A stretch of 30,504 nt of DNA from Opitutus sp. GAS368 (GTDB lineage Bacteria > Verrucomicrobiota > Verrucomicrobiia > Opitutales > Opitutaceae). Shown piece after piece: positions 11,034 to 30,504 of this stretch (its first letter is position 1; every line of letters begins with the position of its first letter). Below the pieces are notes generated by a model. The model was not told where the DNA came from and ran no database searches. It saw nothing but the letters and a program-made list of their open reading frames with translations. The translations under genes and the position numbers were made by a program. The stretch covers positions 1 through 30,504 of the forward strand of contig CAMAVZ010000023.1 of the NCBI GenBank assembly GCA_945861645.1. The letters run 5' to 3'.

Positions 11034-11555
11034 TAGTTTTAAGGTTTAAGTTCTAAGTTTTAAGCTCGGATTTCCTTTCGCGTCGTTTCGCGTATTTCGC
11101 GGGCCAAAATGCCTGGGTCGATCCGGATCTTCGTTTTCAGATTTTCTACTTTTCCCAGTTTCATCTTTTCCGTTCCTACCTTGGCCGACCCCGAAACCAA
11201 TTTAACCACGGATTTCACGGATCCGATCTGGATTAAAGACAGAAGACCCCTGCCTCAGATCCATCCTGATCCCATCCTGTCCCCATCCGTGGTAAAAAAT
11301 GCCTGCGTCGATCCGGGTCTCAGTTTCCCGATTTCTACTTTCCTAGATTTCATCTTTTCCGCCCCCCTTCGCGTCACTTCGCGTCCTTCGCGGTTAAAAA
11401 TGTCTTGGTCGATCCGGATCTTCGTTTCTCCAGTTTCTACTTTCCAAAGTTTCATCTTTTCCGCCCCTGCCTTGTTCGATTTTTGTGTTTCTCGTGTTTT
11501 TCGTGGCTGTGCCTCGTTCGTTTTGCGCCTTATGCGCTTTTTGTGGCGGCCTTAA
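11034..11555 (+). repeat. Mosaic modular repeat array 1 (module order T-B-C-D-C-B-C-E-E)
   Basis: T heptamers 11034-11070. B (ttcgcg x3) at 11076 and 11368. C (gatccggatc plus pyrimidine tract) at 11117, 11307 and 11408. D hairpin 11194-11300. E at 11480 and 11521. All modules recur in other arrays. Confidence 0.9.
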
Positions 11556-11686
11556 GGCTTGAGGCTAGAGGCGGCACCGCCCCACTCAATTTTGTCTTTT
11601 TTATCGCTGTCCATCCATGAAATGCTTCTACCTTAGATCTTAAATCAGCTTCCGACCCAAGCCCATTCATCTGCCGATCCGTTGCT

Positions 11687-12205
11687 ATGCCGAAAAGAAT
11701 CATTAAACGCTGGATGCCCGATCGCGATACCCTAAAGAAACACAGGTATTTAAGGCTATTCGGAGACAGACTACTTGACCCTAATCTGTGGCATTTGAAT
11801 CGCCGCTCGGCTGCCGGATCCTTCGCCGTCGGGCTCTTTGCGGCCTGGATTCCAGTTCCCTTGCAATCGTTGCTCGCCGCCGCTGGAGCCATCGTCTGCC
11901 GAGTCAACTTGCCGATCTCGGTAGCTCTGGTGTGGGTCTCCAATCCCCTGACCATGCCGCTCATGTTTTATAGTGCCTATAAGATGGGTTGCATGCTGTT
12001 GAGACAACCCGTCCAACCGCTGGAATTCGAATTTACTTGGCACTGGTTAAAATCAGTTTTGGGAACAGTGGCAACTCCGCTGCTACTAGGCACTCTGGTG
12101 ATGGCCATCCTCAGTTCACTCTTCGGCTATATCCTTATTCGGGTTATCTGGGAGATCAACGCAGCGCGCAAATGGCAAAAGCGAAAGCAAACCATTAATA
12201 ATTAA
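11687..12205 (+). CDS. DUF2062 domain membrane protein
   Basis: LWHLNRRSAAGSFAVGLFAAWIPVPLQ and WVSNPLTMP are typical of DUF2062. Visibly more AT-rich than neighbouring genes. Confidence 0.88.
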   Translation: MPKRIIKRWMPDRDTLKKHRYLRLFGDRLLDPNLWHLNRRSAAGSFAVGLFAAWIPVPLQSLLAAAGAIVCRVNLPISVALVWVSNPLTMPLMFYSAYKMGCMLLRQPVQPLEFEFTWHWLKSVLGTVATPLLLGTLVMAILSSLFGYILIRVIWEINAARKWQKRKQTINN

Positions 12206-12476
12206 TCGCTGGTTTCCTCGTTGCTAAATAAAATCCGCTACCGGCGCCTCGGCAATGCTTGCTCCGGTTTAGCATGCGCCGGCGCCCGTGAGCCTGGTGG
12301 CCCGATGACAGCTGAGCCCTCCGCAGCGCGCCCCTGCCCCTGCCGGTATTTCTAGGCCGCCCGCACCGGTTAGCTCAGGCAGCCCGAGACGCCGGCGCGG
12401 TCCACCTGCCCTCAGGCCCGCATTGGCTTGAGTCCGATTTTATCGCCGTCCAGTTTTTACTAAAAATAGACTAACT

Positions 12477-14084
12477 ATGCTTAATCGTTATGCTCCCCTC
12501 TTAGTCACCCTCTTCGCCACGCTGCTCCTGGCCGCTTGCAGTAAAAAATCCTCTTCGGCGGTTGACGGCACGAAGACCCTCCATCTTGGCAATGGCACCG
12601 AAGTGCAGGATCTGGATCCGCAAGTCGTCACCGGTGTCCCCGAGAACAAAGTCATTAACGCGATCTTTGAGGGGCTCGTCATTGAAGGCCCCACCGGCAC
12701 CGACACCGCCCCAGCGGTGGCCGAACGCTGGGAAACTTCGGCTGACGGCCTCCAGTGGACGTTTTACCTGCGCGCCGAGGCCCGCTGGTCCAATGGTGAT
12801 CCCGTCACGGCGCATGATTTTCTGCGCTCTTATCAACGCATCCTCACGCCCAGCCTTGCCGCCGAATACGCTTACAAGCTTCACCACGTGGTTGGGGCGG
12901 AGGATTACAACACTGGGAAGCTGATCGATTTTTCTCAAGTTGGCTTTAAGGCCCTCGATGATCGCACCCTGCTAATCACCCTGCGCCACCGCATGCCGTT
13001 CCTGCTGGAGGCGCTAAAGCACTACTCGTGGTTTCCGGTTCACCTCCCCACGGTCGAAAAGTTTGCTGGCCTCACCCGCAAGGGCTCCCGTTGGACCCGC
13101 ACCGAGAACATGGTGGGCAATGGGGCTTTCGTTCTCGGCAACTGGCAGCCCAACCAAAAAATTATCGTCACCCGCTCCCCAACTTATTGGGACCGCGCCA
13201 ACGTCAAACTCGACGCAATCCACTATTATCCCATCGAAAGCATGGAAACTGAGGAGCGAATGTTCCGCACTGGTCAGCTGCATAAAACCAACGAGCTGCC
13301 CATCGCCAAGATCGACACCTACAAGCGCACCTACCCGACAAGCTACCGGCAGGATATCTACTACGGCACCTACTTTTACCGCCTCAATGTCACGCGGCCG
13401 CCGCTCAATGACGTCCGCGTGCGCCGCGCCCTCGCCCTCGCGATTGACCGCGAGCTGCTGGTCGCGCAGGTCACCCGCGGCGGCCAAGCCCCCGCGTACC
13501 ACTTTATTCCAGCGACGGAAGAATTCACCCCGCAGGCCCGACTTCGAGGCGATCTTACCGAGGCCCGCCGCCTGCTCGCCGCGGCCGGCTATCCCGAGGG
13601 CCGAGGCTTTCCGAAGATTGAATTACTCTACAACACCTCCGAGAACCACCGGGTCATTGCCGAGGCCATCCAGCAAATGTGGCGCCGCCATCTCGGCGTG
13701 AATATCGGCCTGCGCAACGAGGAGTGGAAAGTGTATCTCGATTCGCAAGATGCGCTGAACTTCGACCTCTGCCGCGCCGGCTGGATCGCGGACTATACCG
13801 ATCCCAACACCTTCGCCGATCTGTGGGTCACCGGCGGTGGCAACAATGACACCGGGTTCTCCAACGCCGACTATGACCGATTGCTGCGCGCTTCGATGGA
13901 TGCCCAGACTGACGAGCAGCGTTTCGCCATCTATCAGCAGTTGGAGAAAATCCTAGTCGATGAAATGCCCGTCATTCCCATTTATTTCTACACGCGCGTG
14001 TATGCGATCAGCCCCAAGGTGCGGCACTGGGTAAAAAATTCCCTCGACAACCGCGCTTGGAAATTCATCGATCTCGCCGAGTGA
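12477..14084 (+). CDS. oppA: Peptide ABC transporter substrate-binding lipoprotein (OppA family)
   Basis: Lipobox LLLAAC. Motifs DLDPQ, WTFYLRAEARWSNGDPVTAHDF, VGNGAF and RAGWIADYTDP. Confidence 0.92.
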   Translation: MLNRYAPLLVTLFATLLLAACSKKSSSAVDGTKTLHLGNGTEVQDLDPQVVTGVPENKVINAIFEGLVIEGPTGTDTAPAVAERWETSADGLQWTFYLRAEARWSNGDPVTAHDFLRSYQRILTPSLAAEYAYKLHHVVGAEDYNTGKLIDFSQVGFKALDDRTLLITLRHRMPFLLEALKHYSWFPVHLPTVEKFAGLTRKGSRWTRTENMVGNGAFVLGNWQPNQKIIVTRSPTYWDRANVKLDAIHYYPIESMETEERMFRTGQLHKTNELPIAKIDTYKRTYPTSYRQDIYYGTYFYRLNVTRPPLNDVRVRRALALAIDRELLVAQVTRGGQAPAYHFIPATEEFTPQARLRGDLTEARRLLAAAGYPEGRGFPKIELLYNTSENHRVIAEAIQQMWRRHLGVNIGLRNEEWKVYLDSQDALNFDLCRAGWIADYTDPNTFADLWVTGGGNNDTGFSNADYDRLLRASMDAQTDEQRFAIYQQLEKILVDEMPVIPIYFYTRVYAISPKVRHWVKNSLDNRAWKFIDLAE

Positions 14085-14368
14085 GATCCGCCCGTGCGTC
14101 GCGGCCCACAAGCGGTGACAGGCCGAGGGCAGAAGCTGTGATTCCAGCCGCTTGGCCGGCCAGCATTGGCGCACGCACGGCGCGCCGAGGCCAGCGCCAG
14201 ACCACGGGGGACCTACTTGAGCGATTGACCAACGCTTAGCGTTCGCTCACCCCGGCGAGTTAGCCATCGGCTCTGGCACCCGGATTTCTTCTCCCCAGAC
14301 TAAGCCAGTTTTCTCTTAATGAAAACTGCCGGAGCGAGTTTACTGAAATAAATTATTTAATTTTAAAT

Positions 14369-14395
14369 TGAGGCGTAAGCCTCATGCCTTTTTTT
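14369..14395 (+). terminator. Terminator-like hairpin (tgaggc-gtaa-gcctca followed by T7) upstream of the TerC-family gene
   Basis: Perfect 6-bp stem with a GNRA loop and a T-run 4 nt downstream, about 40 nt before the ATG at 14435. Confidence 0.45.
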
Positions 14396-14434
14396 AATTG
14401 AAAGTGTTGAGAAATTCTTAACAAAGTTAAAACT

Positions 14435-15133
14435 ATGGAATTTTTTACCATGATCGACTGGTCTGTGGTGGTTCAAATCATCCTCATCGATCTCCTTTTG
14501 GGTGGTGATAACGCTGTCGTAATCGCCCTAGCCTGCCGTAATTTAAATCCCAAGCAAAGAGCAAAGGGCATTATCTGGGGCACGGCCGGAGCGATCATTT
14601 TGCGGGTCATCTTGGTCGCTTTCGCCGTCACCCTTTTACAAATTCCCTTTCTCAAGTTAGTCGGTGGGGCCCTCCTGTTGTGGATCGGTTATAAATTGAC
14701 GGTGCAGGACCAGCAGGCAGAGCACAAGCTCAACGCTCCCGACAGACTGCTCGCGGCCATTAAAACGATCATTGTGGCCGATATAGTCATGAGTTTGGAT
14801 AACGTCCTAGCCATCGCTGGGGCCGCCGGTCAGGTAAATAATTCAGCTCACCAGGTAAGCTATGTGATCTTCGGCCTACTCGTTTCGGTGCCGATTATCG
14901 TCGCTGGTAGCAGGATCGTCCTTTATTTCATCGATCGTTTCCCCCTCATCGTGACGGCGGGGGCAGGTCTCTTGGGTTGGATTGCCGGTGGCATGATCAT
15001 GACCGATCCTGCACTCCTTAAGCAATTTGGTGAAAGTTTAGCCAATTACGAAACGATCGCTGGACTTGCTGGTGCAATTGGGGTCATGGCGGTCGGTGAA
15101 TTAGTGAAGCGGCAGCGGCGAGCGCGGCGCTAG
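14435..15133 (+). CDS. TerC-family (YjbE-type) integral membrane protein
   Basis: IILIDLLLGGDNAVVIALAC and IIVADIVMSLDNVLAIAGAA are TerC repeat motifs. More AT-rich codon usage than neighbours. Confidence 0.92.
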   Translation: MEFFTMIDWSVVVQIILIDLLLGGDNAVVIALACRNLNPKQRAKGIIWGTAGAIILRVILVAFAVTLLQIPFLKLVGGALLLWIGYKLTVQDQQAEHKLNAPDRLLAAIKTIIVADIVMSLDNVLAIAGAAGQVNNSAHQVSYVIFGLLVSVPIIVAGSRIVLYFIDRFPLIVTAGAGLLGWIAGGMIMTDPALLKQFGESLANYETIAGLAGAIGVMAVGELVKRQRRARR

Positions 15134-15751
15134 TTTAAGTTTTAAGTTTAAGCTTAAGATCGAGCCGGGCTGCTGATTCGAACCGGCCACAAAAGGCGAA
15201 ACAGAGACGGCACCGAGGTGAAAGGTCAGAGGTGAGAGGCCATAGGCCAGAGGCTATAGGGCCGATCCGGAACTCAGTTTCTAGATTTCTCACTTTCAAA
15301 AGTTTCATCTTTTCCGCCCCCCTTCGCGTCACTTCGCGCCCTTCGCGGTTAAAAACGTCTTGTTCGATCCGGATCTTAGTTTCTCCAGTTTCTACTTTCC
15401 CCAGTTTCATCTTTTCCGCCCCTTTCGCGTCGTTTAGCGCCCTTCGCGGTTAAAAATGTATTGGTACTTCCCAAACTAATTTAACCACGGATTTCGCGGA
15501 TCCAATGTGGATTAAATCCAAAAGAACTATGCCTCAGATCCATCCTGATCCCATCCTGTCCCCATCCGTGGTCAAAAATGCCTTGGGTCGATTCATATCT
15601 TCGTTTCCCAATTTTCTACTTTCTAAAATTTCATCTTTTCCTCCCCTGCCTTGTTCGATTCTGCGCCTTCTGTGCTTTTTGTGGCTGGTTCAAAATCCGC
15701 GGCTCGATCCGATCCGAACTTAAAACTTAAACCTTAAAACTTAAACCTTAA
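15122..15751 (+). repeat. Mosaic modular repeat array 2 (T-partial G-F-C-B-C-B-D-C-E-inverted T) with long imperfect terminal inverted repeats
   Basis: F heptamers 15216-15257. C at 15261, 15363 and 15587. B at 15323 and 15423. D 15473-15579. E about 15659. The ends 15122-15198 and 15674-15751 are imperfect inverted copies. Confidence 0.9.
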
Positions 15752-18434
15752 CTCCCAGCCGCTCAATGCGGACCGCGGTGATTTTATATTCAGGGGTCTT
15801 GGTGTAGCGGTCGCGGTGGGCCGTCGTGATATGATTCAGGAGCACCCGTGTGGAGTGGAACGTGGTGTAAACTTCGCCTGGCTTCACGTGCGTGCTGAGT
15901 TGGACCGGCACTTCCGCGGAGCCTTGCGTACTGACCAAGCGGATCGTTTCGCCGTCGCTCAAACCGAGGCGGGCTCCATCGATGGGTGAAAGTTGCAGAT
16001 AATCCGTCGGGTGCAGGCGATCGTTGGGCGTGCGGGCGGTTTGCGTGGCCGCATTGTATTGGTACAAATTGCGTCCGGTGGTGAGCAGGAAGGGATAGTC
16101 GGGGGTCGTGAGAACCGGCGGCGCCACATACTCGATGCGCCGCAGGGCTGTGGTGTGCCCGTGGGTGAAATGCTCCGCATGGAGAATAGCTAAGCCCGGG
16201 TCCGTTTCATCGAGACACGGCCATTGCAACCCCCCGAGCGCATCCATGCGCGCATAGCTAATCCCCGCGCCGTCCGGCCAGAGGGAGCGCACTTCGTCCC
16301 AAATTTCCTCGGCGGAGCGATAGCCAAATTGCTCGCCGCGCCCCATGGTGTGCGCGATGGCGCAGATAATTTCCCAATCCGAGCGGGCCTCGCCTTGCGG
16401 CAACGCTGCGCGCCGCACGCGCTGCAGCCGGCGCTCACCATTCATAAAAGTCCCGTCTTTTTCAAACGACGACGCCGCGGGCAAAAATACATCGGCAAAT
16501 TCCTTCGCCGTTTCGTTCATGAAAAGATCCTGCACGATCACGAGATCCAACTGCTCGAGCGCGTGGCGCGTCGCATGCATATTGGGATTCGTCATCAAGA
16601 TATCGTAGCCGATCGACCAGAGCACCTTTAACTTTCCGGCCGTCGCCGCGTCCATCATGTCGATCATGTTGAGCCCGGGGTGCGTCGGGATCGGTTGATG
16701 CCAGGCTGTTTCAAATTTCTGCCGCGCTTCTTCGATCGGCACGTAACCGGCCAGCAACTTAGGCTCGCAACCCATGTGGGGCGCGCCTTGGACATTGTTC
16801 TGCCCGCGCAGGGGGTTAATCCCCGTGCCTGGTTTGCCAATATTGCCGGTGAGCAGCGCGAGATTCACCAGCGCCATGATGCCTTCGGTGCCTTGGATGT
16901 GCTCGGTCAGGCCGAGGCCGTGCACACTCAACGATGGCTTCGCGGTCGCGTACAAACGGGCCGCCGCGCGAATCTTTTCCGCCGGCACGCCGCAAATTTC
17001 TGCCACTTTCTCCGGCATAAAGTCGCGGATGAAATCAACGTACTCCGAGTATTCGGTCAGCCGCGTCCGGATGAATTCCTCATCAGCCAAGCCTTCGTCG
17101 ATGATTGCCGCCCCAATCGCATTAAACAGCACGACATTCGTGCCGGCGTGCAGCTGCAGATGGAGCGTGGCGAATTCGCAGAGCTCGATCTCGCGGGGAT
17201 CCACGATGATTAGGTGAGCGCCGTGACGGGCCGCTTGCTTGATGCGTGCACCAGTGACGGGATGACCGTCCGTGGGATTAGCGCCGCACACGAGAATCGT
17301 CTTCGCGAGTGCGATCTCGTCCAAGGAGTTCGTCGCCGCGCCCGTGCCGAGCGTCATCTTCATCGCCGCCGCCGTGGGCGAGTGGCAAACGCGCGCACAG
17401 CAATCAATATTGTTGGTGCCCAACACCAAGCGGGCGAATTTCTGCGCGACGTAATTCTCCTCATTCGTCCCGCGCGCGGAACTGAGCAGGCCAATACTAT
17501 CGGCCCCATGCGCCGCCGCGGTCGCGTGCAACCGCGTCGCGATAAATTCATTCACCTCCGCCCAACTCACGCGCTGCCACTGGCCGTCGCGCCGAATCAT
17601 GGGGGAAGTCACGCGATCTTGGGCGTAGACGTAGTCGAAAGCATAGCGGCCCTTGACGCAGGCGTGGCCGTGATTGCTCGGGCCCTCGAGGGAGGGCCGG
17701 ATCGTGGTGATCTTGCCGTCGCGCGTGCCGACGTTCATCTCACAGCCCGTGCCGCAGTACGAACAGATCGACTTCGTCCACTGCGTCGGCGTGCCGCGCA
17801 TGAGGACGGTGATATCTTCCAAGGCGCCGGAGGGACAGGTATCCACGCAAGCGCCGCAACTCACGCAACCGCCATCGAGCAGGGTCTCGCCGCGCACGGG
17901 CAAGATGCGCGTGGTATCACCGCGATTCCACGCCTTCCAAACAAATTGCCCCTGCACTTCCTCACAAATGCGGACGCAGCGGTAACAGGTCACGCACTGC
18001 GACATGTCGACGTTGATGTACGGATGCGACGCATCCTGCATGAACGGCACCGCGGGAGCGGGAGAATTCCGCGAGCCCCCAGCGGTGACGCCGTAGGTGC
18101 GGAGATAACGGTGAAATTGTTTTTCCGGATAAGCCGCTACGGCTTCCGCCGGATAATCCTTGGCCAGCAGCCCCAAGAGTGTGCGACGCACGCCCTCCAC
18201 GGCGGGCGAATGCGTCTGGATCTCCATGCCCTCGCGCAGCGGGGTGTTACAAGCGGTGGCCAAGCCGGGCATCCCCGTCACTTCCACGGCGCAGAGTCGG
18301 CACGAGCCGTAGGGTTCGAGGCGATCGTCGTGACACAGCGTCGGCACTTCGCCACCGATCTGGCGCAAGGCCTCATTGATCGTAAGCCCCTCGGCGAACT
18401 GATGCGACTGCCCGTTGATGGTTACTTGAAGCAT
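15741..18434 (-). CDS. fdhF: Formate dehydrogenase alpha subunit (Mo/W-bisPGD, FdhF/FdsA type, Cys-containing)
   Basis: N-terminal 2Fe-2S (VPTLC...GSCRLC...ACNT) and 2x4Fe-4S (CVTCYRCVRIC, CVSCGACVDTCP). Also CSYCGTGC, active-site CARVCHSP, PLRGQNNVQG and TPEYK. Confidence 0.93.
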   Translation of the reverse strand: MLQVTINGQSHQFAEGLTINEALRQIGGEVPTLCHDDRLEPYGSCRLCAVEVTGMPGLATACNTPLREGMEIQTHSPAVEGVRRTLLGLLAKDYPAEAVAAYPEKQFHRYLRTYGVTAGGSRNSPAPAVPFMQDASHPYINVDMSQCVTCYRCVRICEEVQGQFVWKAWNRGDTTRILPVRGETLLDGGCVSCGACVDTCPSGALEDITVLMRGTPTQWTKSICSYCGTGCEMNVGTRDGKITTIRPSLEGPSNHGHACVKGRYAFDYVYAQDRVTSPMIRRDGQWQRVSWAEVNEFIATRLHATAAAHGADSIGLLSSARGTNEENYVAQKFARLVLGTNNIDCCARVCHSPTAAAMKMTLGTGAATNSLDEIALAKTILVCGANPTDGHPVTGARIKQAARHGAHLIIVDPREIELCEFATLHLQLHAGTNVVLFNAIGAAIIDEGLADEEFIRTRLTEYSEYVDFIRDFMPEKVAEICGVPAEKIRAAARLYATAKPSLSVHGLGLTEHIQGTEGIMALVNLALLTGNIGKPGTGINPLRGQNNVQGAPHMGCEPKLLAGYVPIEEARQKFETAWHQPIPTHPGLNMIDMMDAATAGKLKVLWSIGYDILMTNPNMHATRHALEQLDLVIVQDLFMNETAKEFADVFLPAASSFEKDGTFMNGERRLQRVRRAALPQGEARSDWEIICAIAHTMGRGEQFGYRSAEEIWDEVRSLWPDGAGISYARMDALGGLQWPCLDETDPGLAILHAEHFTHGHTTALRRIEYVAPPVLTTPDYPFLLTTGRNLYQYNAATQTARTPNDRLHPTDYLQLSPIDGARLGLSDGETIRLVSTQGSAEVPVQLSTHVKPGEVYTTFHSTRVLLNHITTAHRDRYTKTPEYKITAVRIERLGVKV

Positions 18435-19930
18435 GGCTCAATTTCTGTCGGGTAATAACGTAGGATCGATTCCGCAAAACGCGCCAGACCGGTGCCGTGA
18501 CCGCAGAGGCTGGTGAGTTTGAGCGCGGTGACGAGGTCGCGACATTCTTGGAGATCCGCGCGGGACGCCGTGCCCGCAATTGCGGCGGTGAAAATAGCTT
18601 CGACGCGTCCGCTGCCGCTGCGGCACGGCGTGCATTTGCCACACGACTCATAGGCCCCGAAGGAGAAAACATGTTCCACCAAGGCGGGAATCGAAGTGTG
18701 TTCATCAAACGCCACCACGCCCCCGTGACCGACGCCGGCGCCGATGGCCGCTAGTTCCTCAAACCCCAGCGGGGTATCGAGCAAGTGCGGCGGGATCAGA
18801 CCGATGATGGGACCGCCGATAATAATGCCCTTGAGCTTACCGCCCCCGCGCAAGCCGCCGCCGATGACCTCGACGATGTGGCGGACGGTGACACCGAATT
18901 CGACTTCATAGAGACCCGGACAATTAAAAAGTGAATTTAGCGAGAGTGCCTTCGTGCCCCGGCTCTTGGAAAACCCCAAGGCCGCGTAGGCGGCGCCGCC
19001 GTGCGTCACGATCCACGGCACGCTGACGAGCGTCTCGACATTATTGAGCAACGTCGGTCGGCCGAAAAGGCCGCGTTCGGTCGGATAAGGCGGGCGCGCC
19101 ATGACCTCGGGACGCTGACCCTCGATGGAACGCAGGAGGGAAGTTTCCTCGCCGCAGACATAGCTCCCGTGGCCGACGTAGACCTCGAGGTTAAAGGTAA
19201 AATCTTTTCCGCCGATGCGCGCACCGAGCCAGCCCGCCGCGTGAGCCTCGAGGAGTGCGGCCTGCAAGACGCTGACGGCCTGCGGATATTCGATGCGCAC
19301 ATAAATATAACCCTGCGCCGCGCCGACCGCATAAGCGGCGAGGATCATGCCCTCGATGAGCGCGTGCGGATCATCCTCCATGATGTAGCGATCGATGTAG
19401 GCACCGGCATCGCCCTCATCGGCGTTGGCCACCACGTATTTGGTACCAGCCGGCTGGGCGGCGACGGCGCGCCATTTTCGACCGGTCGGAAAACCCGCAC
19501 CACCCCGCCCGCGCAGTCCAGAAGTTTCGACGGCGGCCAGGAGTTGTTCGGGGGATTGCGTTAACGCCTGAGCCAAGGCCGCGTAGCCGCCCATTTTTTG
19601 AGCAGCCACCAAGGAGCGCGCGCCCCCGGCCGCGATCCGGCCGAGGACGATCCCATGCGGGGAGAAAACTTTAACGGGCGGACGCGGACGGGTCTGGCCC
19701 TTGGCGGGAGCGGCGAAGCATTCGCCCAGGCAGTAGACGCGCGGATTTTGCGCGGCGGCCTCGACCCAGCGCGCGGGATTTAAATGTTTCGCGGCAAAGC
19801 AAGCGGTACCCTGACAAGCTTGGCCCGTGTGTTCGCCGTGCGGCAAATGGTAGAAAGACTCCACATCAGGCGTGAGCGGAGCGGGCGAGCAACGCCGAGC
19901 AGCGTGAGGATGAGCTGGGGTAATTTGCAC
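18422..19930 (-). CDS. NuoF/FdsB-like NAD(H)/FMN-binding subunit with a fused short NuoE/FdsG-like 2Fe-2S segment
   Basis: SGLRGRGGAGFPTG, NADEGD, YVCGEETSL and ESCGKCTPCR...SLCG. N-terminal FYH...CQGTAC...CLGEC. Overlaps the alpha gene start. The GTG start is uncertain. Confidence 0.88.
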   Translation of the reverse strand: MQITPAHPHAARRCSPAPLTPDVESFYHLPHGEHTGQACQGTACFAAKHLNPARWVEAAAQNPRVYCLGECFAAPAKGQTRPRPPVKVFSPHGIVLGRIAAGGARSLVAAQKMGGYAALAQALTQSPEQLLAAVETSGLRGRGGAGFPTGRKWRAVAAQPAGTKYVVANADEGDAGAYIDRYIMEDDPHALIEGMILAAYAVGAAQGYIYVRIEYPQAVSVLQAALLEAHAAGWLGARIGGKDFTFNLEVYVGHGSYVCGEETSLLRSIEGQRPEVMARPPYPTERGLFGRPTLLNNVETLVSVPWIVTHGGAAYAALGFSKSRGTKALSLNSLFNCPGLYEVEFGVTVRHIVEVIGGGLRGGGKLKGIIIGGPIIGLIPPHLLDTPLGFEELAAIGAGVGHGGVVAFDEHTSIPALVEHVFSFGAYESCGKCTPCRSGSGRVEAIFTAAIAGTASRADLQECRDLVTALKLTSLCGHGTGLARFAESILRYYPTEIEPCFK

Positions 19931-20056
19931 AAGACGAAATAATGAGCCGAACGAACGCGAAGGTAGCTGAGCGCCAACCAGTGGTTCAATCCCAGACTAC
20001 GCTTATACCCCGCAAAAAAGGCGAAATGATTAATCACGCACCGGCGCAGGCGCGGG

Positions 20057-20470
20057 CGCGGCGCCAGTTTAAGTTTTAAGTTTAAGATTAAGTTCGGATC
20101 GAGCCGCCGATTTATAACAATCCACAAAAAGCACAGAAAGCGCAAAATCGATCCAAGGCAGGGAAGGAAAAGATGAAACTTGGGAAAGTAGAAAATTGGG
20201 AAACGCATATCCGGATCGACCAAGGCATTTTTAACCGCGAAGGGCGCGAAGTGACGCGAAGAGGGGCCGGAAAAGATGAAATTTGGAAAGTGGAAAATTG
20301 GGAAACGAAGATCCGGATCGGCCCTCTCACCTCTGACCTCACACCTCTGACCTCCTGCCTCGGTTTCGCCTCTGTTTCGCCCAGTGGCGAGAACTGAGGA
20401 CGAACACCGGGTTGATAGTAATCAACAACGGTGCCACCCCAGTGAGCGCGGCGAATGGCTTAAACTTAAG
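20057..20470 (-). repeat. Mosaic modular repeat array 3, inverted relative to the others (T-G-F-C-B-C-E-inverted T on minus strand)
   Basis: The reverse complement shows G 20364-20438, F about 20323-20355, C 20269-20322 and 20166-20220, B 20227-20260, E about 20121-20147, and T-type ends. Confidence 0.9.
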
Positions 20471-20473
20471 CCT

Positions 20474-20496
20474 GCGCCGCGCCGTCGGCGCGGCGC
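20474..20496. other. GC-rich hairpin immediately after the SDR stop
   Basis: gcgccgcgcc-gtc-ggcgcggcgc, a perfect 10-bp stem between the SDR stop and array 3. Confidence 0.6.
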
Positions 20497-21351
20497 TTAG
20501 GCAGTTTTTAGAAAATCGGTGGCAAGGCCCGTGGAATTTCCTGATTCAAGTTCTCGGGTCGCGGCGGCGAGCTTTCGGCGGGCTTTGTCGAGGGCGTATT
20601 TGCCGAGCACGAGCCGGAGTGGCGGATTCTCTGCGGCCACTGCGTTGATGATGGCGTCCGCGGCCCTCGCCGGATCGCCGGGTTGGCGTCCATTCAGTGT
20701 TTCAATCAAACGCCGAAACTTGCCGCTCGATAAATCGTAGTCGGAAATACTGCCCGGGGCGCGCTCGAGTGACCGAGCGACGAAGTTCGTGCGGAAGGGG
20801 CCGGGTTGCACGATCGTCACTTTCAAACCTAACGGACGGACTTCCGCCGCGAGTGATTCGGACAGGCCCTCCAGCGCCCATTTGGTCGCACCGTAAACCG
20901 AAAAGCCGGGATAATTTTCGATGGCGGCCGCCGCACTGATATTGACGAAATGCCCGCGCCGCTGCGCCCGCATGATGGGCAGCGCGGCCCGGATTACCCG
21001 TAAGGCCCCGAAAAAATTTGTCTCAAAGTTCCGGGCGATTTGCCCTTCGTCATATTCCTCTAGTGCCCCGATCAGGCCATAGCCCGCGTTGTTCACCACG
21101 ACATCTAACCGGCCGAATATCGCCGCGGCCTGAGCGACCACGGGCGCCGCTTGAGCGGCGTCAGCGACGTCGAGCGCCAGCGCGCGGGATCGGCTCGGAT
21201 CAGCGTCGACCAGATCGGTCAGCGTGGCCGGATCGCGGGCCGTGGCGATGAGCCGATGGCCATGAGCCAGCACGCGCTCAGCGAGCGCGCGTCCGAGACC
21301 GCTGGAGCAACCCGTAATTAGCCAAACCGGAGTGTCATTAATTTCATTCAT
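20497..21351 (-). CDS. Short-chain dehydrogenase/reductase
   Basis: WLITGCSSGLG, VNNAGYG and YGATK (YxxxK). ATG 21351 overlaps the DUF2071 stop (ATGA). Confidence 0.93.
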   Translation of the reverse strand: MNEINDTPVWLITGCSSGLGRALAERVLAHGHRLIATARDPATLTDLVDADPSRSRALALDVADAAQAAPVVAQAAAIFGRLDVVVNNAGYGLIGALEEYDEGQIARNFETNFFGALRVIRAALPIMRAQRRGHFVNISAAAAIENYPGFSVYGATKWALEGLSESLAAEVRPLGLKVTIVQPGPFRTNFVARSLERAPGSISDYDLSSGKFRRLIETLNGRQPGDPARAADAIINAVAAENPPLRLVLGKYALDKARRKLAAATRELESGNSTGLATDFLKTA

Positions 21352-22145
21352 AAAGCAGTGGAAACGAGGGGTGTGAGGGGAAAAATGGCAACCTCGACTG
21401 GCCAAGCGGCCAGCACGGAGGCGGGTTCATCGACCAAGTTAAAACCAGCCAGCCGAGCGGGCTCGACCGACCATTTCGCCCCCCGCGGCGCATAGACGCG
21501 ATAAGGATCATGGTGCACGCGCCCCTGATATAGCCGGCCCGCTGGGTCAGCCGCGAAAAGCAGATAGCGCTCCAACAAGAAAAACTCGAGCGAGCCTGGT
21601 ATCGCCGGCGCCGCTTCGGACCCCGGAGTCCACGCGAAATTACCCGTTTGGGCGCCCGCCACCTGGCGCTGGCACTCAAACTGAATCCAGCCGTCGTGAG
21701 ATGATCTCGCCATGCGGGCCGACTGATACGGCAGATGGAAAAAGCGCCGCGCGATCGCCACCGCGAGAGGCTGATTACAATCGAGTGAGTAGAACCACAC
21801 GCCCGGCTGCCCCTGCTCATCATAGACGTAAGTGCGCACGTTCAGCTCGTGAAACCAGGACAACCAAGGTAGCGGAGGCAGCCACGCCGGACGAACGCGC
21901 TCCATCGAAAATGGCACGATGCCGATATACGCCGCCCCAGCAAAAGTGTCGACGTAGAGCCCCGGGGGCAGCGTCGCTTGGATCGACTCCGGATCGACGG
22001 TCCAGTGCGCGAAAAGCAAGTGATTCCAACGCTGTCGACCGATCACCGCACCAGCCGGCCGCCGGCGCAGGTTGCCGCGCTGCTCCAGAGTCGGCGGAGC
22101 AGGAGCGAATGCCGGCAAGATCGATGGGGAATAATCCAGATTCAT
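21348..22145 (-). CDS. DUF2071 / YqjF family protein
   Basis: QRWNHLLFAHW, LPPGLYVDTF, FHELNVRTYV, PGVWFYSLD and FLLERY. Confidence 0.9.
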   Translation of the reverse strand: MNLDYSPSILPAFAPAPPTLEQRGNLRRRPAGAVIGRQRWNHLLFAHWTVDPESIQATLPPGLYVDTFAGAAYIGIVPFSMERVRPAWLPPLPWLSWFHELNVRTYVYDEQGQPGVWFYSLDCNQPLAVAIARRFFHLPYQSARMARSSHDGWIQFECQRQVAGAQTGNFAWTPGSEAAPAIPGSLEFFLLERYLLFAADPAGRLYQGRVHHDPYRVYAPRGAKWSVEPARLAGFNLVDEPASVLAAWPVEVAIFPLTPLVSTAL

Positions 22146-22289
22146 GCCGCAAGATTATTGCTTACCCTTTTACGCTTTTCCAAGTTGCCGCATTCGCCCG
22201 CGTTGCCAGCGAGGTTTTCAGGATCAGCACGCTGGGGAGATTTGTTCGTGACCATTTTAAACGGGCGAAGTGCTGCGGTGCGAAGGGAG

Positions 22290-22724
22290 CTAGGGAGTCG
22301 GGCCAAGCGCTGCACAGGTGGCAGCGGAGATGGGCTCGGCCTGCATGCGACCGCTCGCATCCTGCCGAACGTGCACAGTGCTCATGCGACCCAGCGCCAC
22401 CTGAGTCCATTTACCAGCCCGATCTTTGTGGAAGCTGAATTCGTAGGCGAGGCTGGTTGCCCCCAGTTCGATCAGAGTGGCCGTGATGCGAACCAGATCG
22501 CCGCAGCGGAGAGGCCGTTGGAAACTGCAGGAGGCTTCACGGCGGGGCCAGCCGAACCGGATGCCGGCGGGATTGGTGCTCATCATCGGTAGGCCGAGGG
22601 AGCGAAACCACTCGTGCTCGCAGACCTCCATCCAACGATAGAAATTCGAGAAATGCATGATGCCGGCGGCATCGGTTTCATGAAATTCAACCCGACGAGT
22701 AAGCGCGAAGGTTTGGCTGGGCAT
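22290..22724 (-). CDS. Acyl-CoA thioesterase (4HBT/YbgC-like hotdog fold)
   Basis: RRVEFHETDAAGIMHFSNFYRWME and FQRPLRCGD. Start at MPSQ (22724). Confidence 0.88.
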   Translation of the reverse strand: MPSQTFALTRRVEFHETDAAGIMHFSNFYRWMEVCEHEWFRSLGLPMMSTNPAGIRFGWPRREASCSFQRPLRCGDLVRITATLIELGATSLAYEFSFHKDRAGKWTQVALGRMSTVHVRQDASGRMQAEPISAATCAALGPTP

Positions 22725-22840
22725 AGGACAGCATGAAGCAAAGCGAGAGCTTGTCAAAGTGCGCGCCGGTCGCGCAGCAGATCGATGCCAGTTTTCTCCT
22801 ACAATCGCGGCAAACCGGAGTTCGAACGCTGATCCCTGGT

Positions 22841-24601: not shown

Positions 24602-24682
24602 AAAAAAAAGCAGGCGCGTCGGGAAGTCGAGCGGGCAATCGTCTTGCCGGGCCGAGGTCAAAAAGGAGGGCGCCGCCGCTGA

Positions 24683-25900: not shown

Positions 25901-26070
25901 GATAGGGGGAGGGCTAGGGCCAAGAAATCCAATTTACGGAAGGGACGGAGTGCCGAGGTAGCCTGGTTCACGTGAGCGACAAATCAACTTGATTGAGGAA
26001 CTGCCGGAGGGATCAGCCTGCGGATGTTGATATCAACGTAGACTGGGCGCGCACTTCCCTCGCCCAGCCC

Positions 26071-26125
26071 TGGCCGGTTCGAAATCAGCCGCCGGCCCAA
26101 GCTTAAACTTAAACTGGCGCTGCGC
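26071..26125 (-). repeat. Solo terminal segment of the mosaic repeat family
   Basis: Minus strand reads gcgcagcgccagtttaagtttaagcttgggccggcggctgatttcgaaccggcca. Array 2 left end reads gcgcggcgctagtttaag...aagctt...gccgggctgctgattcgaaccggcca. Confidence 0.7.
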
Positions 26126-26190
26126 CGTGACCGCGCCGATCCGGTCAAGCGTCAAGGCATGACGTCATCGGGTATCACTTGGGACCTTGA

Positions 26191-26220
26191 AATTTAAAAG
26201 CCGCGCACGGCCGCGCGGCC
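26191..26220 (-). terminator. Probable intrinsic terminator of the autotransporter gene
   Basis: Stem gccgcgc / gcgcggc followed on the minus strand by ttttaaatt, about 25 nt past the stop at 26246. Confidence 0.55.
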
Positions 26221-26245
26221 TTGAGGGGGAGGACTGATCGGCGGC

Positions 26246-28111
26246 TTAGAAGCCGGTATGAATTGCGGCAGAATATTGAACGGCATCCTTGCCATCACTG
26301 CGCATCTCGGTGCCGAGGCCCGCAGTCCAACTCCAAAGTTTGCCGGCTCTGCCCGTCACGTGAAAACCGACCTTGAAGCTGTCGCCGTTGCCGTCGTCGA
26401 CCTGCACGCCGGTCCATCCGGAGAGATTGTCGGCGAGCCGACCGGAAAGCGTACGCTGGTCATTGTTGAGGTCGCCCGAATAGACGCCGGTGAGGCCGAA
26501 AGTCAGCGGTAGGTCGCCGGCGTGGAATACGTAATCCGCCGTCGCCCCGATCTGGCCCGCGAGGCTCCGCATGTCTTGCTCCTCAAAGGAGAAATTCAGG
26601 CCCGTGACGCCGGACTCGGTGTAGCTGCCCAGTGAGCCGCGCGTATACCGCACCCCGACAAACGGCGTGACGTGTAACGCGCTGCTGCTGAAGTCATGCC
26701 CCACCCGCACCGAGGCCCCGTAGCGGTTGCCGGAGGCTTTGCCGGTTGCGCGGAAGGTCGCCAGCGAAGTGGGCCGAGCGATATCGCGGACATTCTGGCC
26801 GCCGTAGGTGGCCGTGGCCTCAAAGAAAGTCGCGCCCGATTTCCACTGGGCGTAACCGGTGCCGGACTCGCCTGAGATTTTGAAGGAACCAAGACCATAG
26901 TTCGTCTTCACCTTCGCATTAACGGTCTCTACACTGAAGGCCAGACCCACGGTGAAATTGGATTCGATCTTGCAATCAAATCCGGCGGTGAGGGCCCGAG
27001 CGTTAGCATCGTAGCTCGGCTGGTAACGATCAAAGTGTCGTCCCCCATCCTGAAAGGTGTAGGAGACGAAACCATCGGCCCCGTGGCGATTGGTGCCGCT
27101 CCTAATCTGATTGAGCCGGGCGTCGACGGTGTCGGCGGTCAGATCAGCGAGGGCAACGATGGCGGTGCCTTGGGTGCCGGCGGTGCCAAGCACGAACTCG
27201 GGATTCAGGATTTCCTGCAACGCGCCCGTGAGAATGGCATGCGTGCGCGTGGTCGGATGAATGCCATCAAAAAAGACATACCCGTCCGCTGGGCCCGGGG
27301 TGCCGCCGGCGGCGAGAATATCGACTATGCTCTGGTTCGTGACCGCGAAGCCGAAGGACGCCGGATTCTTCACGATTAGGTTTAGGAACGATTGCAGATT
27401 CACGAGCGTGACATCGGTGCCCGCCGGCAGACCGGCCGCGGTGAGCTTCGCGCGGATGGAAGCGTTATACGTGAGTGAGCCGGCATCTGCGAGCGAGGCG
27501 GCCGGTGCGCCCGATCCGGTGGTGAAGCGCGGGGTCTGTGCGATGTTGGGCAGATTGATGACCAGAAATTTCCGAGCGCCGGCCGCGGCCAAGGTCTTCA
27601 CCGCGCTAGTGACGGAAACCGAAGCCGCTTCAGCGGCGGCATTGACCGAAGTAAAGTTCTGCGTCGCCGGATTGCCGATCGTGTTGAGAATATCGTTGGC
27701 GCCAGCCAGCAGGACAAAGAGATCGGTGGCCGCCGGCGTGATTCCCCGCGCCTGGAACATGCCCAGCTGCGTCGGAATCGAGGCCGGGACGGGCGTCGCG
27801 CCGACGGCGGTGGCACCGGCAAAGGCGAAGTTAAGGTTCGTGCGCACCGAGGCGGCGGCGGTCACGGCATTCTGCAGGCCGGGCACCAGCTGCTCAGCGT
27901 AAACCGGTCCATTGGAGTAGCGCCCCTTGAAATACGGCACCGGCGGCTGGCCGGTCAGGGCAAATAGATTGCCGGTATCCGACAGGCTGTCGCCGAAAAA
28001 AAAGGTGCTGGTGAAAGTACGGGCCACCGGCTGGGTCTGGCCAAAAGAGGTCAGTATGCCGGCCAAGGCCAGCGCGAGGAATAGTTTTAAAATAAGCCTA
28101 TTGATAATCAT
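26246..28111 (-). CDS. Autotransporter-domain SGNH/GDSL esterase/lipase (EstA-like)
   Basis: FFGDSLSDTGN, GRYSNG, NFAFAGA, GANDI and FFDGIHPT. C-terminal beta-barrel ending in Phe. Confidence 0.9.
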   Translation of the reverse strand: MIINRLILKLFLALALAGILTSFGQTQPVARTFTSTFFFGDSLSDTGNLFALTGQPPVPYFKGRYSNGPVYAEQLVPGLQNAVTAAASVRTNLNFAFAGATAVGATPVPASIPTQLGMFQARGITPAATDLFVLLAGANDILNTIGNPATQNFTSVNAAAEAASVSVTSAVKTLAAAGARKFLVINLPNIAQTPRFTTGSGAPAASLADAGSLTYNASIRAKLTAAGLPAGTDVTLVNLQSFLNLIVKNPASFGFAVTNQSIVDILAAGGTPGPADGYVFFDGIHPTTRTHAILTGALQEILNPEFVLGTAGTQGTAIVALADLTADTVDARLNQIRSGTNRHGADGFVSYTFQDGGRHFDRYQPSYDANARALTAGFDCKIESNFTVGLAFSVETVNAKVKTNYGLGSFKISGESGTGYAQWKSGATFFEATATYGGQNVRDIARPTSLATFRATGKASGNRYGASVRVGHDFSSSALHVTPFVGVRYTRGSLGSYTESGVTGLNFSFEEQDMRSLAGQIGATADYVFHAGDLPLTFGLTGVYSGDLNNDQRTLSGRLADNLSGWTGVQVDDGNGDSFKVGFHVTGRAGKLWSWTAGLGTEMRSDGKDAVQYSAAIHTGF

Positions 28112-28342
28112 ATGTTATGACACGTAGGTTTTTAATCCGAAAGTCCATCCCCTTTTTATAGAAGCGGCCGAAGGAATCTGGTGGCGGACACTGTTTGCTA
28201 AAGCGGACTTTGCCATCCGATGTATGCATCGTAGGGACAGCTGACCCTAGCTGCCCGCTGCCTCCCTTTTACCTTTGCCCAGCAGCTGCGCTACGATTTG
28301 CGCTTTTGTTCTCCCCCTTTAGCTTCCTGTTCAACCTCACCC

Positions 28343-28576
28343 ATGCCCAAGCCCGGAAAAAACGATATCGAACGCCTAAGCCGCGGAGAATCGACCCGCG
28401 GTAAGATCGGCCATCGCGGAGTCGGCCATCGGCTTACGCAAAAAGAACGTATTCTTTTCGAAGCCGCCAAGCGCCAGGGATTTCTAAAAATACCCGTCAA
28501 AGGTATTCGAAATAACGTCATTAATATTTATCGCCTGTGGTGCCAGGCCACAGACCGCCCCTTTGTCACCAAGTAG
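28343..28576 (+). CDS. Small basic hypothetical protein (77 aa)
   Basis: ATG 28343 gives MPKPGKNDIERLSRGESTRGKIGHRGVGHRLTQKERILFEAAKRQGFLKIP...WCQATDRPFVTK. Fills the gap and has protein-like composition. Confidence 0.65.
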   Translation: MPKPGKNDIERLSRGESTRGKIGHRGVGHRLTQKERILFEAAKRQGFLKIPVKGIRNNVINIYRLWCQATDRPFVTK

Positions 28577-28589
28577 GCCGGCGGCTAAA

Positions 28590-29102
28590 TAGTTTTAAGG
28601 TTTAAGTTCTAAGTTTTAAGCTCGGAATTTTCGCGTCGTTTCGCGTTTTTCGCGGTGCTTGCTGAGGTGGCACCGTTGTTGACTGCTATCAACCCGGTGT
28701 TCGTCCTCAGTTCTCGCCCTTGGCGAAACAGAGGCGAAAGGTTAGAGGGTCGATCCGATCTTCGTTTCCCAATTTTCTACTTTCCCCAGTTTCATCTTTT
28801 CCTCCCCCCTTCGCGTCACTTCGCGCCCTTCGCGGTTAAAAATGTCTTGGTACTTCCCAAACCAATTTAACCACGGACGGCACGAATCCGATCTGGATTA
28901 AATCCAAAAGAACTATGCCTCAGATCCATCCTGATCCCATCCTGTCCCCATCCGTGGTCAAAAATGTATTGTTCGATCCGGATCTCCGTTTCCCGATTTT
29001 CAACTTTCCCCAGTTTCATCTTTTCCTCCCCTGCCTTGGTCGATTCAGATCTTCGTTTCCCAATTTTCTACTTTCCCCAGTTTCATCTTTTCCTCCCCTG
29101 CC
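28590..29102 (+). repeat. Mosaic modular repeat array 4 (T-B-G-C-B-D-C-C)
   Basis: First 37 nt are identical to array 1. B at 28629 and 28810. G 28666-28739. C at 28749, 28972 and 29039. D 28859-28965. Confidence 0.9.
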
Positions 29103-29170
29103 ACCCGCAGTCAACGAGGTTGAAATTTGCCGCGGCGGGTGCAGGGTCAGGGGATCAATCATTTGAATTT

Positions 29171-30271
29171 ATGTTTTCACGCACCCTAATCCTGAAATTT
29201 CCTCCTCGTGGGCCCGCTGCTTTCATCCTGGCCGCATTCATGCTGGCTGAGGTCGCGGCCGCGGATTCCGGGTTCGCGCCGACGGTGGCCAATGCCACCC
29301 CGGCTCCAGCGGCTGGGCCGGATGGCATGGTGTGGATTCCGGGCGGTGAGTTTTCCATGGGGGCGAATAGCGAAGCCGAGGACATGTGCAGTTTGCCCGG
29401 GGCCACCAAGGATGCGCAACCCATCCACCGGGTACGCGTGGATCCCTTTTGGATGGACGCCACGGAGGTCACCAATGAGCAGTTTGAAAAATTCGTCGCG
29501 GCCACCGGTTATATCACCGTCGCCGAGCAGAAGCCGACCGAGGCGGAGTTTCCCGGCGCGCCGCCGGAAGTATTAGTCGCCGGATCCATTCTTTTCACGA
29601 CCATGCCTGGGCCGGTGCCGCTGACTCAAGCCCGGTGGTGGAGCTACGTGGCAGGAGTGGCTTGGCAACATCCGGCTGGCCTGGGTAGCGACGTGAAGAA
29701 TGCGGGAAAAGTCCCCGTCGTCCACATCGCCTACGAAGACGCCGCCGCCTACGCGCAATGGGCCGGCAAGCGGTTGCCCACCGAAGCCGAGTGGGAATTC
29801 GCAGCCCGCGGCGGTTCCGCCGGCCAAATTTTTGCTTGGGGCGAAGAACTCAAGCCCGGCGGAAAATTCCAGGCTAATATTTATCAGGGGCAATTTCCCG
29901 TCACCGCCGGCGACACCGGTGAGGACGGCTTCAAGGGGATCGCCCCGGTCGGCCAATATCCCGCCAATCCCTACGGTCTCTACGACGTGGCCGGAAATGT
30001 CTGGGAGTGGTGCAGCGATTGGTATCGCCCCGATTCCTACGCCCAGGCCGCCGCCGACGGTGGGGTCGTCAGTAACCCCCGTGGTCCGGTTTCCTCGCAC
30101 GATCCTGATGAACCGGGTGCCCTTAAGCGCGTCCACCGCGGCGGGTCCTTTCTCTGCACCGACCAGTATTGCACGCGCTACATCCTCGGCACGCGCGGTA
30201 AGGGTGAGATTCGCTCATCGAGCAACCACGTCGGCTTCCGCTGCGCGAAGTCGGTCAGTACTGAAAGGTAA
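29171..30271 (+). CDS. Formylglycine-generating enzyme family protein (SUMF1/FGE-sulfatase domain)
   Basis: MVWIPGGEFSMG, EVTNEQF, RLPTEAEWEFAARGG, GNVWEWCSDWY and RGGSFLCTDQYC. Start uncertain (29171 or 29240). Confidence 0.9.
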   Translation: MFSRTLILKFPPRGPAAFILAAFMLAEVAAADSGFAPTVANATPAPAAGPDGMVWIPGGEFSMGANSEAEDMCSLPGATKDAQPIHRVRVDPFWMDATEVTNEQFEKFVAATGYITVAEQKPTEAEFPGAPPEVLVAGSILFTTMPGPVPLTQARWWSYVAGVAWQHPAGLGSDVKNAGKVPVVHIAYEDAAAYAQWAGKRLPTEAEWEFAARGGSAGQIFAWGEELKPGGKFQANIYQGQFPVTAGDTGEDGFKGIAPVGQYPANPYGLYDVAGNVWEWCSDWYRPDSYAQAAADGGVVSNPRGPVSSHDPDEPGALKRVHRGGSFLCTDQYCTRYILGTRGKGEIRSSSNHVGFRCAKSVSTER

Positions 30272-30504
30272 GAGGTGAGAGGTGAGAGGTCAGTGGTCAG
30301 AGGTGAGAGGTGGCACCGTTGTTGACTGCTATCAACCCGGTGTTCGTCCTCAGTTCTCGCCCTTGGCGAAACAGAGGCGAAACAAAGGCTAGAGGTCAGT
30401 GGTAAGAGGTGAGAGGTGGCACCGTTGTTGACTGCTATCAACCCGGTGTTCGTCCTCAGTTCTCGCCCTTGGCGAAACAGAGGCGAAAGGTTATAGGGCC
30501 GATC
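30265..30504 (+). repeat. Mosaic modular repeat array 5 (F-G-F-G-start of C), truncated by the window end
   Basis: Heptamers aggt(g/c/a)ag, two identical 74-nt G modules (30309-30382 and 30415-30488), then gccgatc. Confidence 0.9.

Follow-up and report, generated by a model that had tools for sequence, protein, structure and literature searches.

The 30,504-nt stretch of DNA analyzed here, hereafter the window, is the complete 30.5-kb contig C23 of Opitutus sp. GAS368, and it raises the question of what the repeat arrays in five of its gene-free intervals are made of and which enzyme could have shaped them. In the few model bacteria for which mosaic intergenic repeats have been described, their origin is as a rule ascribed to transposases associated with repetitive extragenic palindromes (REPs), the REP-associated tyrosine transposases (RAYTs). 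The arrays of the window are an undescribed mosaic repeat family of the kind of the bacterial interspersed mosaic elements (BIMEs), with a directional grammar and few structured parts. A comparable mosaic is found here without a RAYT, and roughly one in two of its module types, namely B, B1, E, E2, and D, can be derived from the arms of a cassette that carries a gene of the GxxExxY family, which encodes a predicted nuclease. The source genome is G000 (2.30 Mb, 116 contigs, 84% complete); G004 (99% complete), G016 (94% complete), and the other G numbers denote genomes of the genus, 65 in total, while L numbers denote labelled loci from other genomes, and C followed by a number denotes a contig.

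Modules and grammar of the arrays

The modules of the window were identified by de novo repeat finding and blastn-short. The data showed that array 1 (11034..11552, plus strand) has the order T-B1-C-D-C-B-C-E-E2 and begins 18 nt past the stop codon of the gene at 8917-11016. Array 2 (15122..15755, plus strand) consists of T, an E-type left arm, and F-C-B-C-B-D-C-E-T', where T' is an inverted T; the TAG stop codon of the gene at 14435-15133 comes from its T, and its T' adjoins the stop codon of fdhA (15741). Array 3 (20057..20470, minus strand), which reads T-G-F-C-B-C-E-T', lies between the stop codon of the gene at 20497-21405 and the start of the gene at 18422-19930. Array 4 (28590..29110, plus strand), T-B1-G-C-B-D-C-C, begins 14 nt past the stop codon of the open reading frame (ORF) 28298-28576. 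Array 5 (30265..30504, plus strand), which is truncated by the contig end, is composed of F-G-F-G and the beginning of the next unit, with a 106-nt tandem period. The five gene-free intervals that contain the arrays have reduced G+C content and strong strand asymmetry.

Eleven copies of C were found (11116, 11307, 11407, 15260, 15362, 15586, 20155 and 20268 on the minus strand, 28747, 28971, and 29038), seven of B, with B1 included (11063, 11364, 15319, 15424, 20226 on the minus strand, 28629, and 28806), three of D (11190, 15470, and 28856), and four of G (20363 on the minus strand, 28668, 30311, and 30417). The identity among the copies was 80-100%, far above chance. The sequence at all five sites agrees with the original prediction, and its counts of C, B, D, and G, made by eye, were reproduced. 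The module matches in all arrays also bore out its view that they are true mosaics, assembled from few kinds of modules with constant boundaries. On the other hand, the partial G copy that it placed in array 2 (~15184-15218) contains no G fragment. In the fold of the whole array this segment, an E-type left arm (15184..15218, plus strand; CCACAAAAGG CGAAACAGAG ACGGC...), pairs with E at 15655-15690, and the same arm is also present at the orthologous site of G004.

The modules differ in architecture (examples are on the plus strand). Three of the module kinds consist of phased words followed by a short end: B (11364..11406) contains three phased CTTCGCG words and then GTTAAAAA, and has the form of a GxxExxY-type cassette's right arm that stands alone; B1 (11065..11116), which invariably follows T, contains three TTTCGCG words and then GGCC; E and E2 (11476..11552), likewise solo right arms, contain three TTYGYG words and then GGC. 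D (11190..11306) is an imperfect, gene-less hairpin of ~100 nt of the cassette type, with the 5' arm TTTAACCACGGATTTCACGGAT and a 3' arm that ends in ATCCGTGGTAAAAA. The 67-nt unit C (28971..29037) has the palindrome GATCCGGATC at its start and the joint described below at its end; it is 77% pyrimidine, with a C/G ratio of 3.1. G (30311..30384) is made of two adjacent hairpins, and its 3' tail consists of purine-rich, left-arm-like words. F (30265..30310) is built of tandem heptamers of the form GGTSAGA, and longer variants of it, such as (GGGTTAT)n, are present on C11 of G000. T (11034..11064) is built of tandem GTTTWAAG-like 7-8-mers and occupies the outer ends of arrays, in inverted form (T') at the distal ends of arrays 2 and 3; the T modules at 11034-11064, 15122-15152, and 28590-28620 have stop codons in all six frames. 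Purines predominate in array 5 and in the left half of both array 2 and array 3. Two D copies elsewhere in G000 (C11:10585-11192 and C11:50386-51059) carry a G+C-rich insert of ~150 nt in the 5' arm, directly after TTTAACCACGGA.

Array 1 is spanned by a 148-aa, ATG-started frame (11109-11555), which is not a gene, and which annotators may call. It exists because the pyrimidine-rich strand has few stop codons, and it exemplifies the long spurious ORFs that the arrays generate.

The modules are joined by a 13-nt sequence, TGCCTTG/GTCGAT (29032..29044, plus strand), which recurs where units meet. With at most one mismatch this joint was found at 29 sites in the genome, 7 of them in the window; the window joints listed at zero or one mismatch are all at module boundaries, with the exception of that at 1723. 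When the five arrays were used as the starting point of an iterated BLAST search, 49 repeat regions (8.6 kb) were found on 16 of the 116 contigs of G000, and these were again mosaic. The grammar was determined from 36 non-redundant arrays with at least two modules, 169 modules altogether, collected from G000 and from G004 and G016 loci after eight duplicate loci on the same contig stretches had been dropped. The same orientation was found in 165 of the 169 modules, and the four that pointed against the B/C/E majority within the array were all distal T'. The 133 transitions between neighbors used 30 of the 64 ordered pairs, the commonest being C>B (19), B>C (14), B>E (9), F>C (8), T>B (7), G>C (7), D>C (7), C>E (6), and B>D (6). 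In the 36 arrays, F, G, or T never directly followed C, D, or T, one T>F excepted. The restricted use of ordered pairs and the nearly uniform orientation show that the module order is constrained and directional and not freely combinatorial. Hence, the genome-wide search and adjacency grammar that had been proposed as a check confirmed that mosaics recur beyond the window, while the order proved restricted, and the module-level shuffling of the original prediction is not free.

The folding of the modules was compared with that of shuffled sequences. D forms a long imperfect hairpin (z −4.45 on the plus and −3.18 on the minus strand) and G two hairpins (z −4.63 and −4.29, respectively), while C, B, and E fold no better than their shuffled counterparts, so that the structured hairpins expected for the arrays as a whole are limited to D and G among these modules. 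Array 2 as a whole folds into a giant hairpin (z −7.2), as does array 3 (z −4.66). In this pairing T is opposed to T', the left arm to E, and F to the tail of C. No such global fold was obtained for arrays 1 and 4 (z −0.21 and −2.62).

Arms of the GxxExxY cassette

The 22-mer TTTAACCACGGATTTCACGGAT of D was found letter-identical in at least 115 stretches of public genomes. The named records that contain the D core are mostly from Verrucomicrobiota (Opitutaceae and others), Planctomycetota, Lentisphaerae, and Kiritimatiellales. The exact 22-mer is also present in records labelled Gemmiger, Bacteroidales, Pyrinomonadaceae, Acidobacteriota (a 4.7-Mb contig), and the cyanobacterium Laspinema (L017, L037, L043, L053, and L076), and therefore the arm core recurs across the Planctomycetes-Verrucomicrobia-Chlamydiae (PVC) superphylum and beyond it. 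The usual element at the 22-mer loci is a long hairpin, in which each arm has three CACGGAT words at 9-10-nt spacing and the end ..GTGGTTAAAA; sister hairpin elements have other words in place of CACGGAT. This architecture of three 7-nt words at 9-10-nt spacing, with the end GYGG(TTAA), or CCRC at the left end, was found in B, B1, E, E2, and both ends of D. A sponge for CsrA-type binding to GGA was considered for the CACGGAT words, and was rejected because other arms are built of words without GGA.

A GxxExxY gene was present at 9 of the 115 loci, in 7 of which the 22-mer lies directly upstream of it on the same strand. An inverted partner arm follows the stop codon of this gene in L051, L073, L085, and L091; the first two look orthologous and were therefore counted as one independent case. 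The sole GxxExxY gene of G000 (C4:77148-77489; 107 bits versus a cut-off of 35) is located between inverted E-type arms, to which the E modules are 92.9% identical by BLAST. E-type arms are also found at the orthologues of this cassette in G004, G044, and G045. The subclade that carries module C has three cassette loci, of which alpha has B-type arms and gamma has E-type arms, while beta has B1-type arms in G016 and a different gene with different words in G004 and G045. B matches the 3' arm of cassette alpha (G004, G016, and G045), and the 3' arm of cassette beta in G016 is nearly the same as B1. GxxExxY genes bracketed by B-type arms were also found in G079, G002, G052, G059, and G066. Judged from their sequences, B, B1, E, and E2 are 3' arms of GxxExxY cassettes that occur on their own, and D is a hairpin of this element type that has no gene.

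The relation between arms and genes was further seen at locus beta, a single orthologous site with the same two neighbor genes. There, L187 (G016:C28) has a 133-bit GxxExxY gene with CGCGAAA-type arms, and L190 (G045:C262) and L191 (G004:C78) have a 107-bit gene with CGCAAAG-type arms; the gene and the arm words appear to have been replaced together. Among 34 cassettes (30 genus loci, one per listed locus, that of G000 itself, and three from the subclade), the arm-to-arm match within one gene was above the 95th percentile of 300 cross-locus pairs in 24, with a median score of 15.5 versus 7. The gene family itself was found in 63 of the 65 genomes. Strict detection returned 52 arms in G000 and 9-12 in shuffled controls; by reading of the listed sequences, 27 of the 52 can be assigned to B, B1, or E, and gene calls contain none of these 27. 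The B arm with at most three mismatches was present in 27 of the 65 genomes, with 16 copies in G000, and the reversed-pattern control gave none in any genome. An exact 31-mer of B has six copies in G000, four each in G004 and G016, and three in G045.

As separate observations, genes that lie just downstream of cassettes beta (L187) and gamma (L188, L193, and L154) start with ATGCCT..., which is similar to the joint of the arrays, (A)TGCCTTG, and at the gamma locus a C-like pyrimidine tract follows the E arm.

The GxxExxY family corresponds to TIGR04256 and to the Pfam family PDDEXK_3 (PF13366), the function of which is listed as "unknown" in an excerpt of the superfamily survey (Steczkiewicz et al. 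2012; PMC3424549). In an alignment of 38 members, G27, E30, D70, K82, Q94, Y98, L99, N111, and F112 are invariant, and E80 is nearly so. The AlphaFold model (pLDDT 94.5, pTM 0.86) has a minimal alpha/beta nuclease core. A Foldseek search with it gave weak, superfamily-level matches, the best to Cas4 SSO0001 (E 1.1e-3, TM 0.57-0.61), and the other solved structures matched were MGME1, lambda exonuclease, and archaeal Hjc, all from the PD-(D/E)XK superfamily, while a sequence search of the PDB gave no match. According to the model, the protein has a minimal PD-(D/E)XK fold with D70, E80, and K82, and it is predicted to be a nuclease. The original prediction had remarked that no cognate enzyme is encoded in the window and had proposed to look for module copies that bracket a nuclease gene. 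There is indeed no enzyme gene for the arrays inside the window, and such a bracketed gene was found outside it, in the cassettes with arms that match B, B1, and E. Hence, the GxxExxY protein is a concrete candidate for the missing enzyme, with predicted arm binding and predicted activity. Literature searches, including those that combined PDDEXK with REP or REPIN, returned no description of the cassette arms or of the arrays, with the figures of O. terrae REP consensus sequences in PMC3733652 outside their coverage; some module may match the GTAG-17 to GTAG-20 families of that species.

Proposed turnover of the arrays and rival explanations

The arrays were compared at an orthologous site. 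The fdh operon, at 15738-20089 of the window, matches G004:C29:212-4560 with 94% identity, and the other genes of the window have ~70% fragments or no match in G004 and G016. Arrays border the operon in both G000 and G004, and the outer T modules and the E-type arm are common to both genomes. On the fdhA side, the interior is B-C in G004, and in G000 it consists of seven modules that run the opposite way; on the far side of the operon it is C-D-B in G004 and E-C-B-C-F-G in G000. The comparison of orthologous loci, which had been suggested as a search for empty sites, thus gave differing array contents at the fdh operon and no empty site. The operon may have been transferred with the arrays at its borders. 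In L142 (G004:C29:1-6060) the gene beyond the array differs from that in G000.

The C copies of array 4 are mutual nearest relatives (94-100%), and some C copies of different arrays are 95% identical, which argues for local duplication and exchange between arrays, and against pure deletion from one master sequence. Mosaics of the same modules in other orders were found in independent assemblies of four related genomes. Module C was detected in 5 of the 65 genomes (G000, G004, G016, G044, and G045), the assembled sizes of which are 1.4-2.8 Mb, and full-length D in G000, G004, and G016; C, G, F, and T are lineage-specific. The sequencing runs that contain DNA of the window are lake-water and freshwater metagenomes from several studies.

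With moderate confidence, we consider the arrays to be non-coding mosaics of a small-genome, freshwater, Opitutaceae-type lineage, which combine cassette arms and hairpins with lineage-specific modules and turn over by duplication, deletion, and exchange. One part of them (B, B1, E, E2, and D) would be pieces of a widespread, selfish-looking element, in which inverted arms enclose a GxxExxY gene, and the other part would be the lineage-specific filler modules C, G, F, and T, with the units set head to tail in one orientation and meeting at the 13-nt joint. Duplication, deletion, and exchange would take place at joints and arms, and these changes could have been begun by cuts of the cassette nuclease, which would then be repaired from other arm-bearing loci. 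The unstructured, C-rich transcript after stop codons may end transcription or insulate neighbors, either as a by-product or in a co-opted role. More tentatively, and in our opinion with a lesser chance of being correct, the arrays could be landing pads and graveyards of an undescribed class of mobile elements, in which GxxExxY recognizes the arms of three phased heptamers, solo arms and hairpins are cut, and homing-like repair copies the neighboring modules, so that BIME-like mosaics are built and reshuffled without a transposase. Repair of this kind from arm-bearing loci would explain why the 31-nt arm is identical in four species, the genes of which are ~30% diverged. If it is true that turnover is driven by the nuclease, a REP/BIME-like genome architecture could arise along a second, independent route, and this would provide a function for the large PDDEXK_3 family.

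Several observations weigh against the explanation by cassette arms and turnover. The GxxExxY gene is neither in nor beside any of the five arrays, and the G000 assembly, at its 84% completeness, holds the E-type cassette only, which leaves B and D without a partner gene in this genome. For C, G, F, and T, the modules that account for the greater part of the array length, no link to the cassette was seen, and neither an empty site nor a target-site duplication was found for any single module. The listed Logan contigs break inside the arrays and none bridges them, and therefore the order of the modules inside each array comes from a single short-read assembly. As determined with a crude ORF caller, arrays show a weak trend to share the orientation of the upstream gene, seen in 18 of 29 arrays and in 10 of 14 arrays with at least three modules (each count gains one if the 92-aa ORF 28298-28576 is a gene). 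The scan for terminator patterns gave no excess, with 22 found versus 22.8 expected from shuffled sequences.

The same orientation data bear on a different explanation, in which the host selects the arrays as RNA or termination elements, and the mosaic is incidental. The C-rich, G-poor transcript would then act in Rho loading or as a terminator-insulator, or the D and G hairpins would stabilize the 3' ends of mRNAs. The pyrimidine bias and lack of structure of C are consistent with it, as are the starts of arrays 1 and 4 only 18 and 14 nt past stop codons, the TAG stop codon supplied by T of array 2, the stop codons of T in all six frames, and the co-orientation of 10 of the 14 multi-module arrays. 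It is nevertheless unlikely, since the overall bias is weak (18/29), purines prevail in array 5 and in the left half of each of arrays 2 and 3, and the arrays at the fdhA 3' site have opposite orientations in G000 and G004; it is also partly compatible with the explanation that we favor. A promoter-pattern scan gave no excess over shuffled sequences. In the metatranscriptome run X15 contigs were found on genes, and none was listed in the arrays, where the depth per bin was 0-0.24, although contigs cannot show absence. We regard as less probable still the decay of one large nested palindrome, with the arrays as deletion-only derivatives of a master T-E'-C'-B'...B-C-E-T'. The giant hairpins of arrays 2 and 3, which T and T' delimit and which are composed of left-arm-type and right-arm-type halves, would fit such a parent, the array at the fdhA site of G004 can be read as mirror-image modules, and the restricted grammar could reflect a fixed parent order. 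This is countered by the tandem F-G-F-G of array 5, the absence of palindromic organization from arrays 1 and 4, the local duplication indicated by the closely related C copies of array 4, and the interiors at the fdhA site, which differ in orientation and hence beyond what deletion alone would give.

Two further explanations are very improbable. The arrays could be an ordinary REP/BIME-REPIN system mobilized by a RAYT, a Y1 HUH transposase, that was missed in the incomplete assembly. Multi-copy extragenic mosaic clusters are indeed BIME-like, and GTAG/GTGG-tagged REPs have been reported in Opitutus terrae, according to an excerpt of Di Nocera et al. (2013; PMC3733652). The search for the transposase (PF01797) gave no match in G000, G004, or G016, where its absence from G000 is not proven, given the 84% completeness. 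The flanks of the Y1 genes of three larger genomes of the genus, G002, G017, and G008, lack the arm words TTAACCRC and GYGGTTAA, except for one chance-like match in 10 loci. Rfam 15 had no match at the gathering score across the window, and arrays 1, 4, and 5 had only chance-level matches in it (E > 1). As neither an Rfam match nor a RAYT gene was found, the arrays are very probably not a REP/RAYT system, and this candidate was rejected also because B, C, and E fold no better than shuffled sequences, and 165 of the 169 modules are co-oriented. Hence, of the predicted likeness to BIMEs the extragenic mosaic organization was retained, while alternating palindromic units are missing and no Y1 transposase was found in G000, G004, and G016. 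It is equally improbable that the order variation results from mis-joined short-read repeats. The window is one short-read contig of a metagenome-assembled genome and ends in an array, the Logan contigs break in every array with a depth there 2-5 times that of the flanks, and alternative joints between arrays were seen, although these are probably other genomic copies. On the other side, the array edges were confirmed in Logan contigs from three DNA runs of three studies, and the adjacencies C-B-C, B-D-C, G-F-C, and T-B recur in the independent assemblies of G004 and G016, with C also present in G044 and G045. In addition, the module copies differ by 5-20% and are therefore not collapsed repeats. 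The arrays do break short-read assemblies of freshwater Verrucomicrobia.

Known repeat families and gene context

The searches of Rfam 15 and of the literature returned no catalogued family that matches the arrays, as had been anticipated, and the following likenesses are partial. The short tandemly repeated repetitive (STRR) sequences are heptamer tandem repeats of heterocystous cyanobacteria, and the BOX elements (boxA-B-C) are modular repeats of pneumococcus. The F and T modules, as intergenic tandem heptamers, resemble the former, and the variable number of internal modules resembles the latter, while sequences and taxa differ, and F and T are mere parts of larger mosaics. In the neisserial intergenic mosaic elements (NIMEs), RS repeat units are bounded by dRS3 repeats, which are 20-bp inverted repeats. 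The arrays share with them the stringing together of variable 30-120-nt units with one short recurring boundary sequence. In contrast to NIMEs, this boundary is a 13-nt direct joint and not an inverted dRS3, and no link to a phage integrase or IS110 was seen. "Large mosaic intergenic regions" of Neisseria are mentioned in the excerpt of PMC3733652.

Compared with REP/BIME and REPIN-RAYT systems, as described in excerpts of Bertels and Rainey (2011; PMC3116915) and of PMC3733652, the arrays are likewise extragenic, high-copy mosaic clusters of few motif types, with a single-copy-like associated gene elsewhere in the genome and with gene-less hairpin derivatives. They differ from the REP/BIME systems of these excerpts in the lack of GTAG-tagged short palindromes and of alternating orientation, and from REPIN-RAYT in that the associated gene encodes a PD-(D/E)XK fold and not a Y1 HUH transposase. 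The closest likeness in sequence is to the GxxExxY cassettes, since B, B1, E, and E2 match arms of real cassettes in G000 and its relatives, and the 5' arm of D is the exact cassette leader in other PVC genomes. Unlike a cassette, the window is geneless in this respect, and its arms stand singly and in one orientation among C, G, F, and T. A CRISPR-like array was rejected because the "spacers" between the joints are about seven recurring families. Copies of a single MITE, a miniature transposable element with inverted repeats, were likewise rejected, in agreement with the original prediction: lengths and contents differ in every array, no target-site duplication is evident, and inverted ends (T and T') are present in arrays 2 and 3 only.

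The genes of the window are of the housekeeping kind. They encode a sodium/solute symporter, a peptidase, an OppA-like binding protein, a TerC/YjbE-type protein, the alpha subunit of formate dehydrogenase and a NuoF-like subunit, a short-chain dehydrogenase/reductase (SDR), a GDSL esterase autotransporter, and an FGE-sulfatase-type protein. Upstream (5') of the OppA-like gene lies ~270 nt of G+C-rich non-coding DNA (12210-12476), for which Rfam gave no match. Elsewhere in G000, tandem 9-mers are located outside gene calls at C5:74315-74384, with eight copies of TGTAGCGGC, and at C49:134-185, with six copies of TTAGGTGTT.

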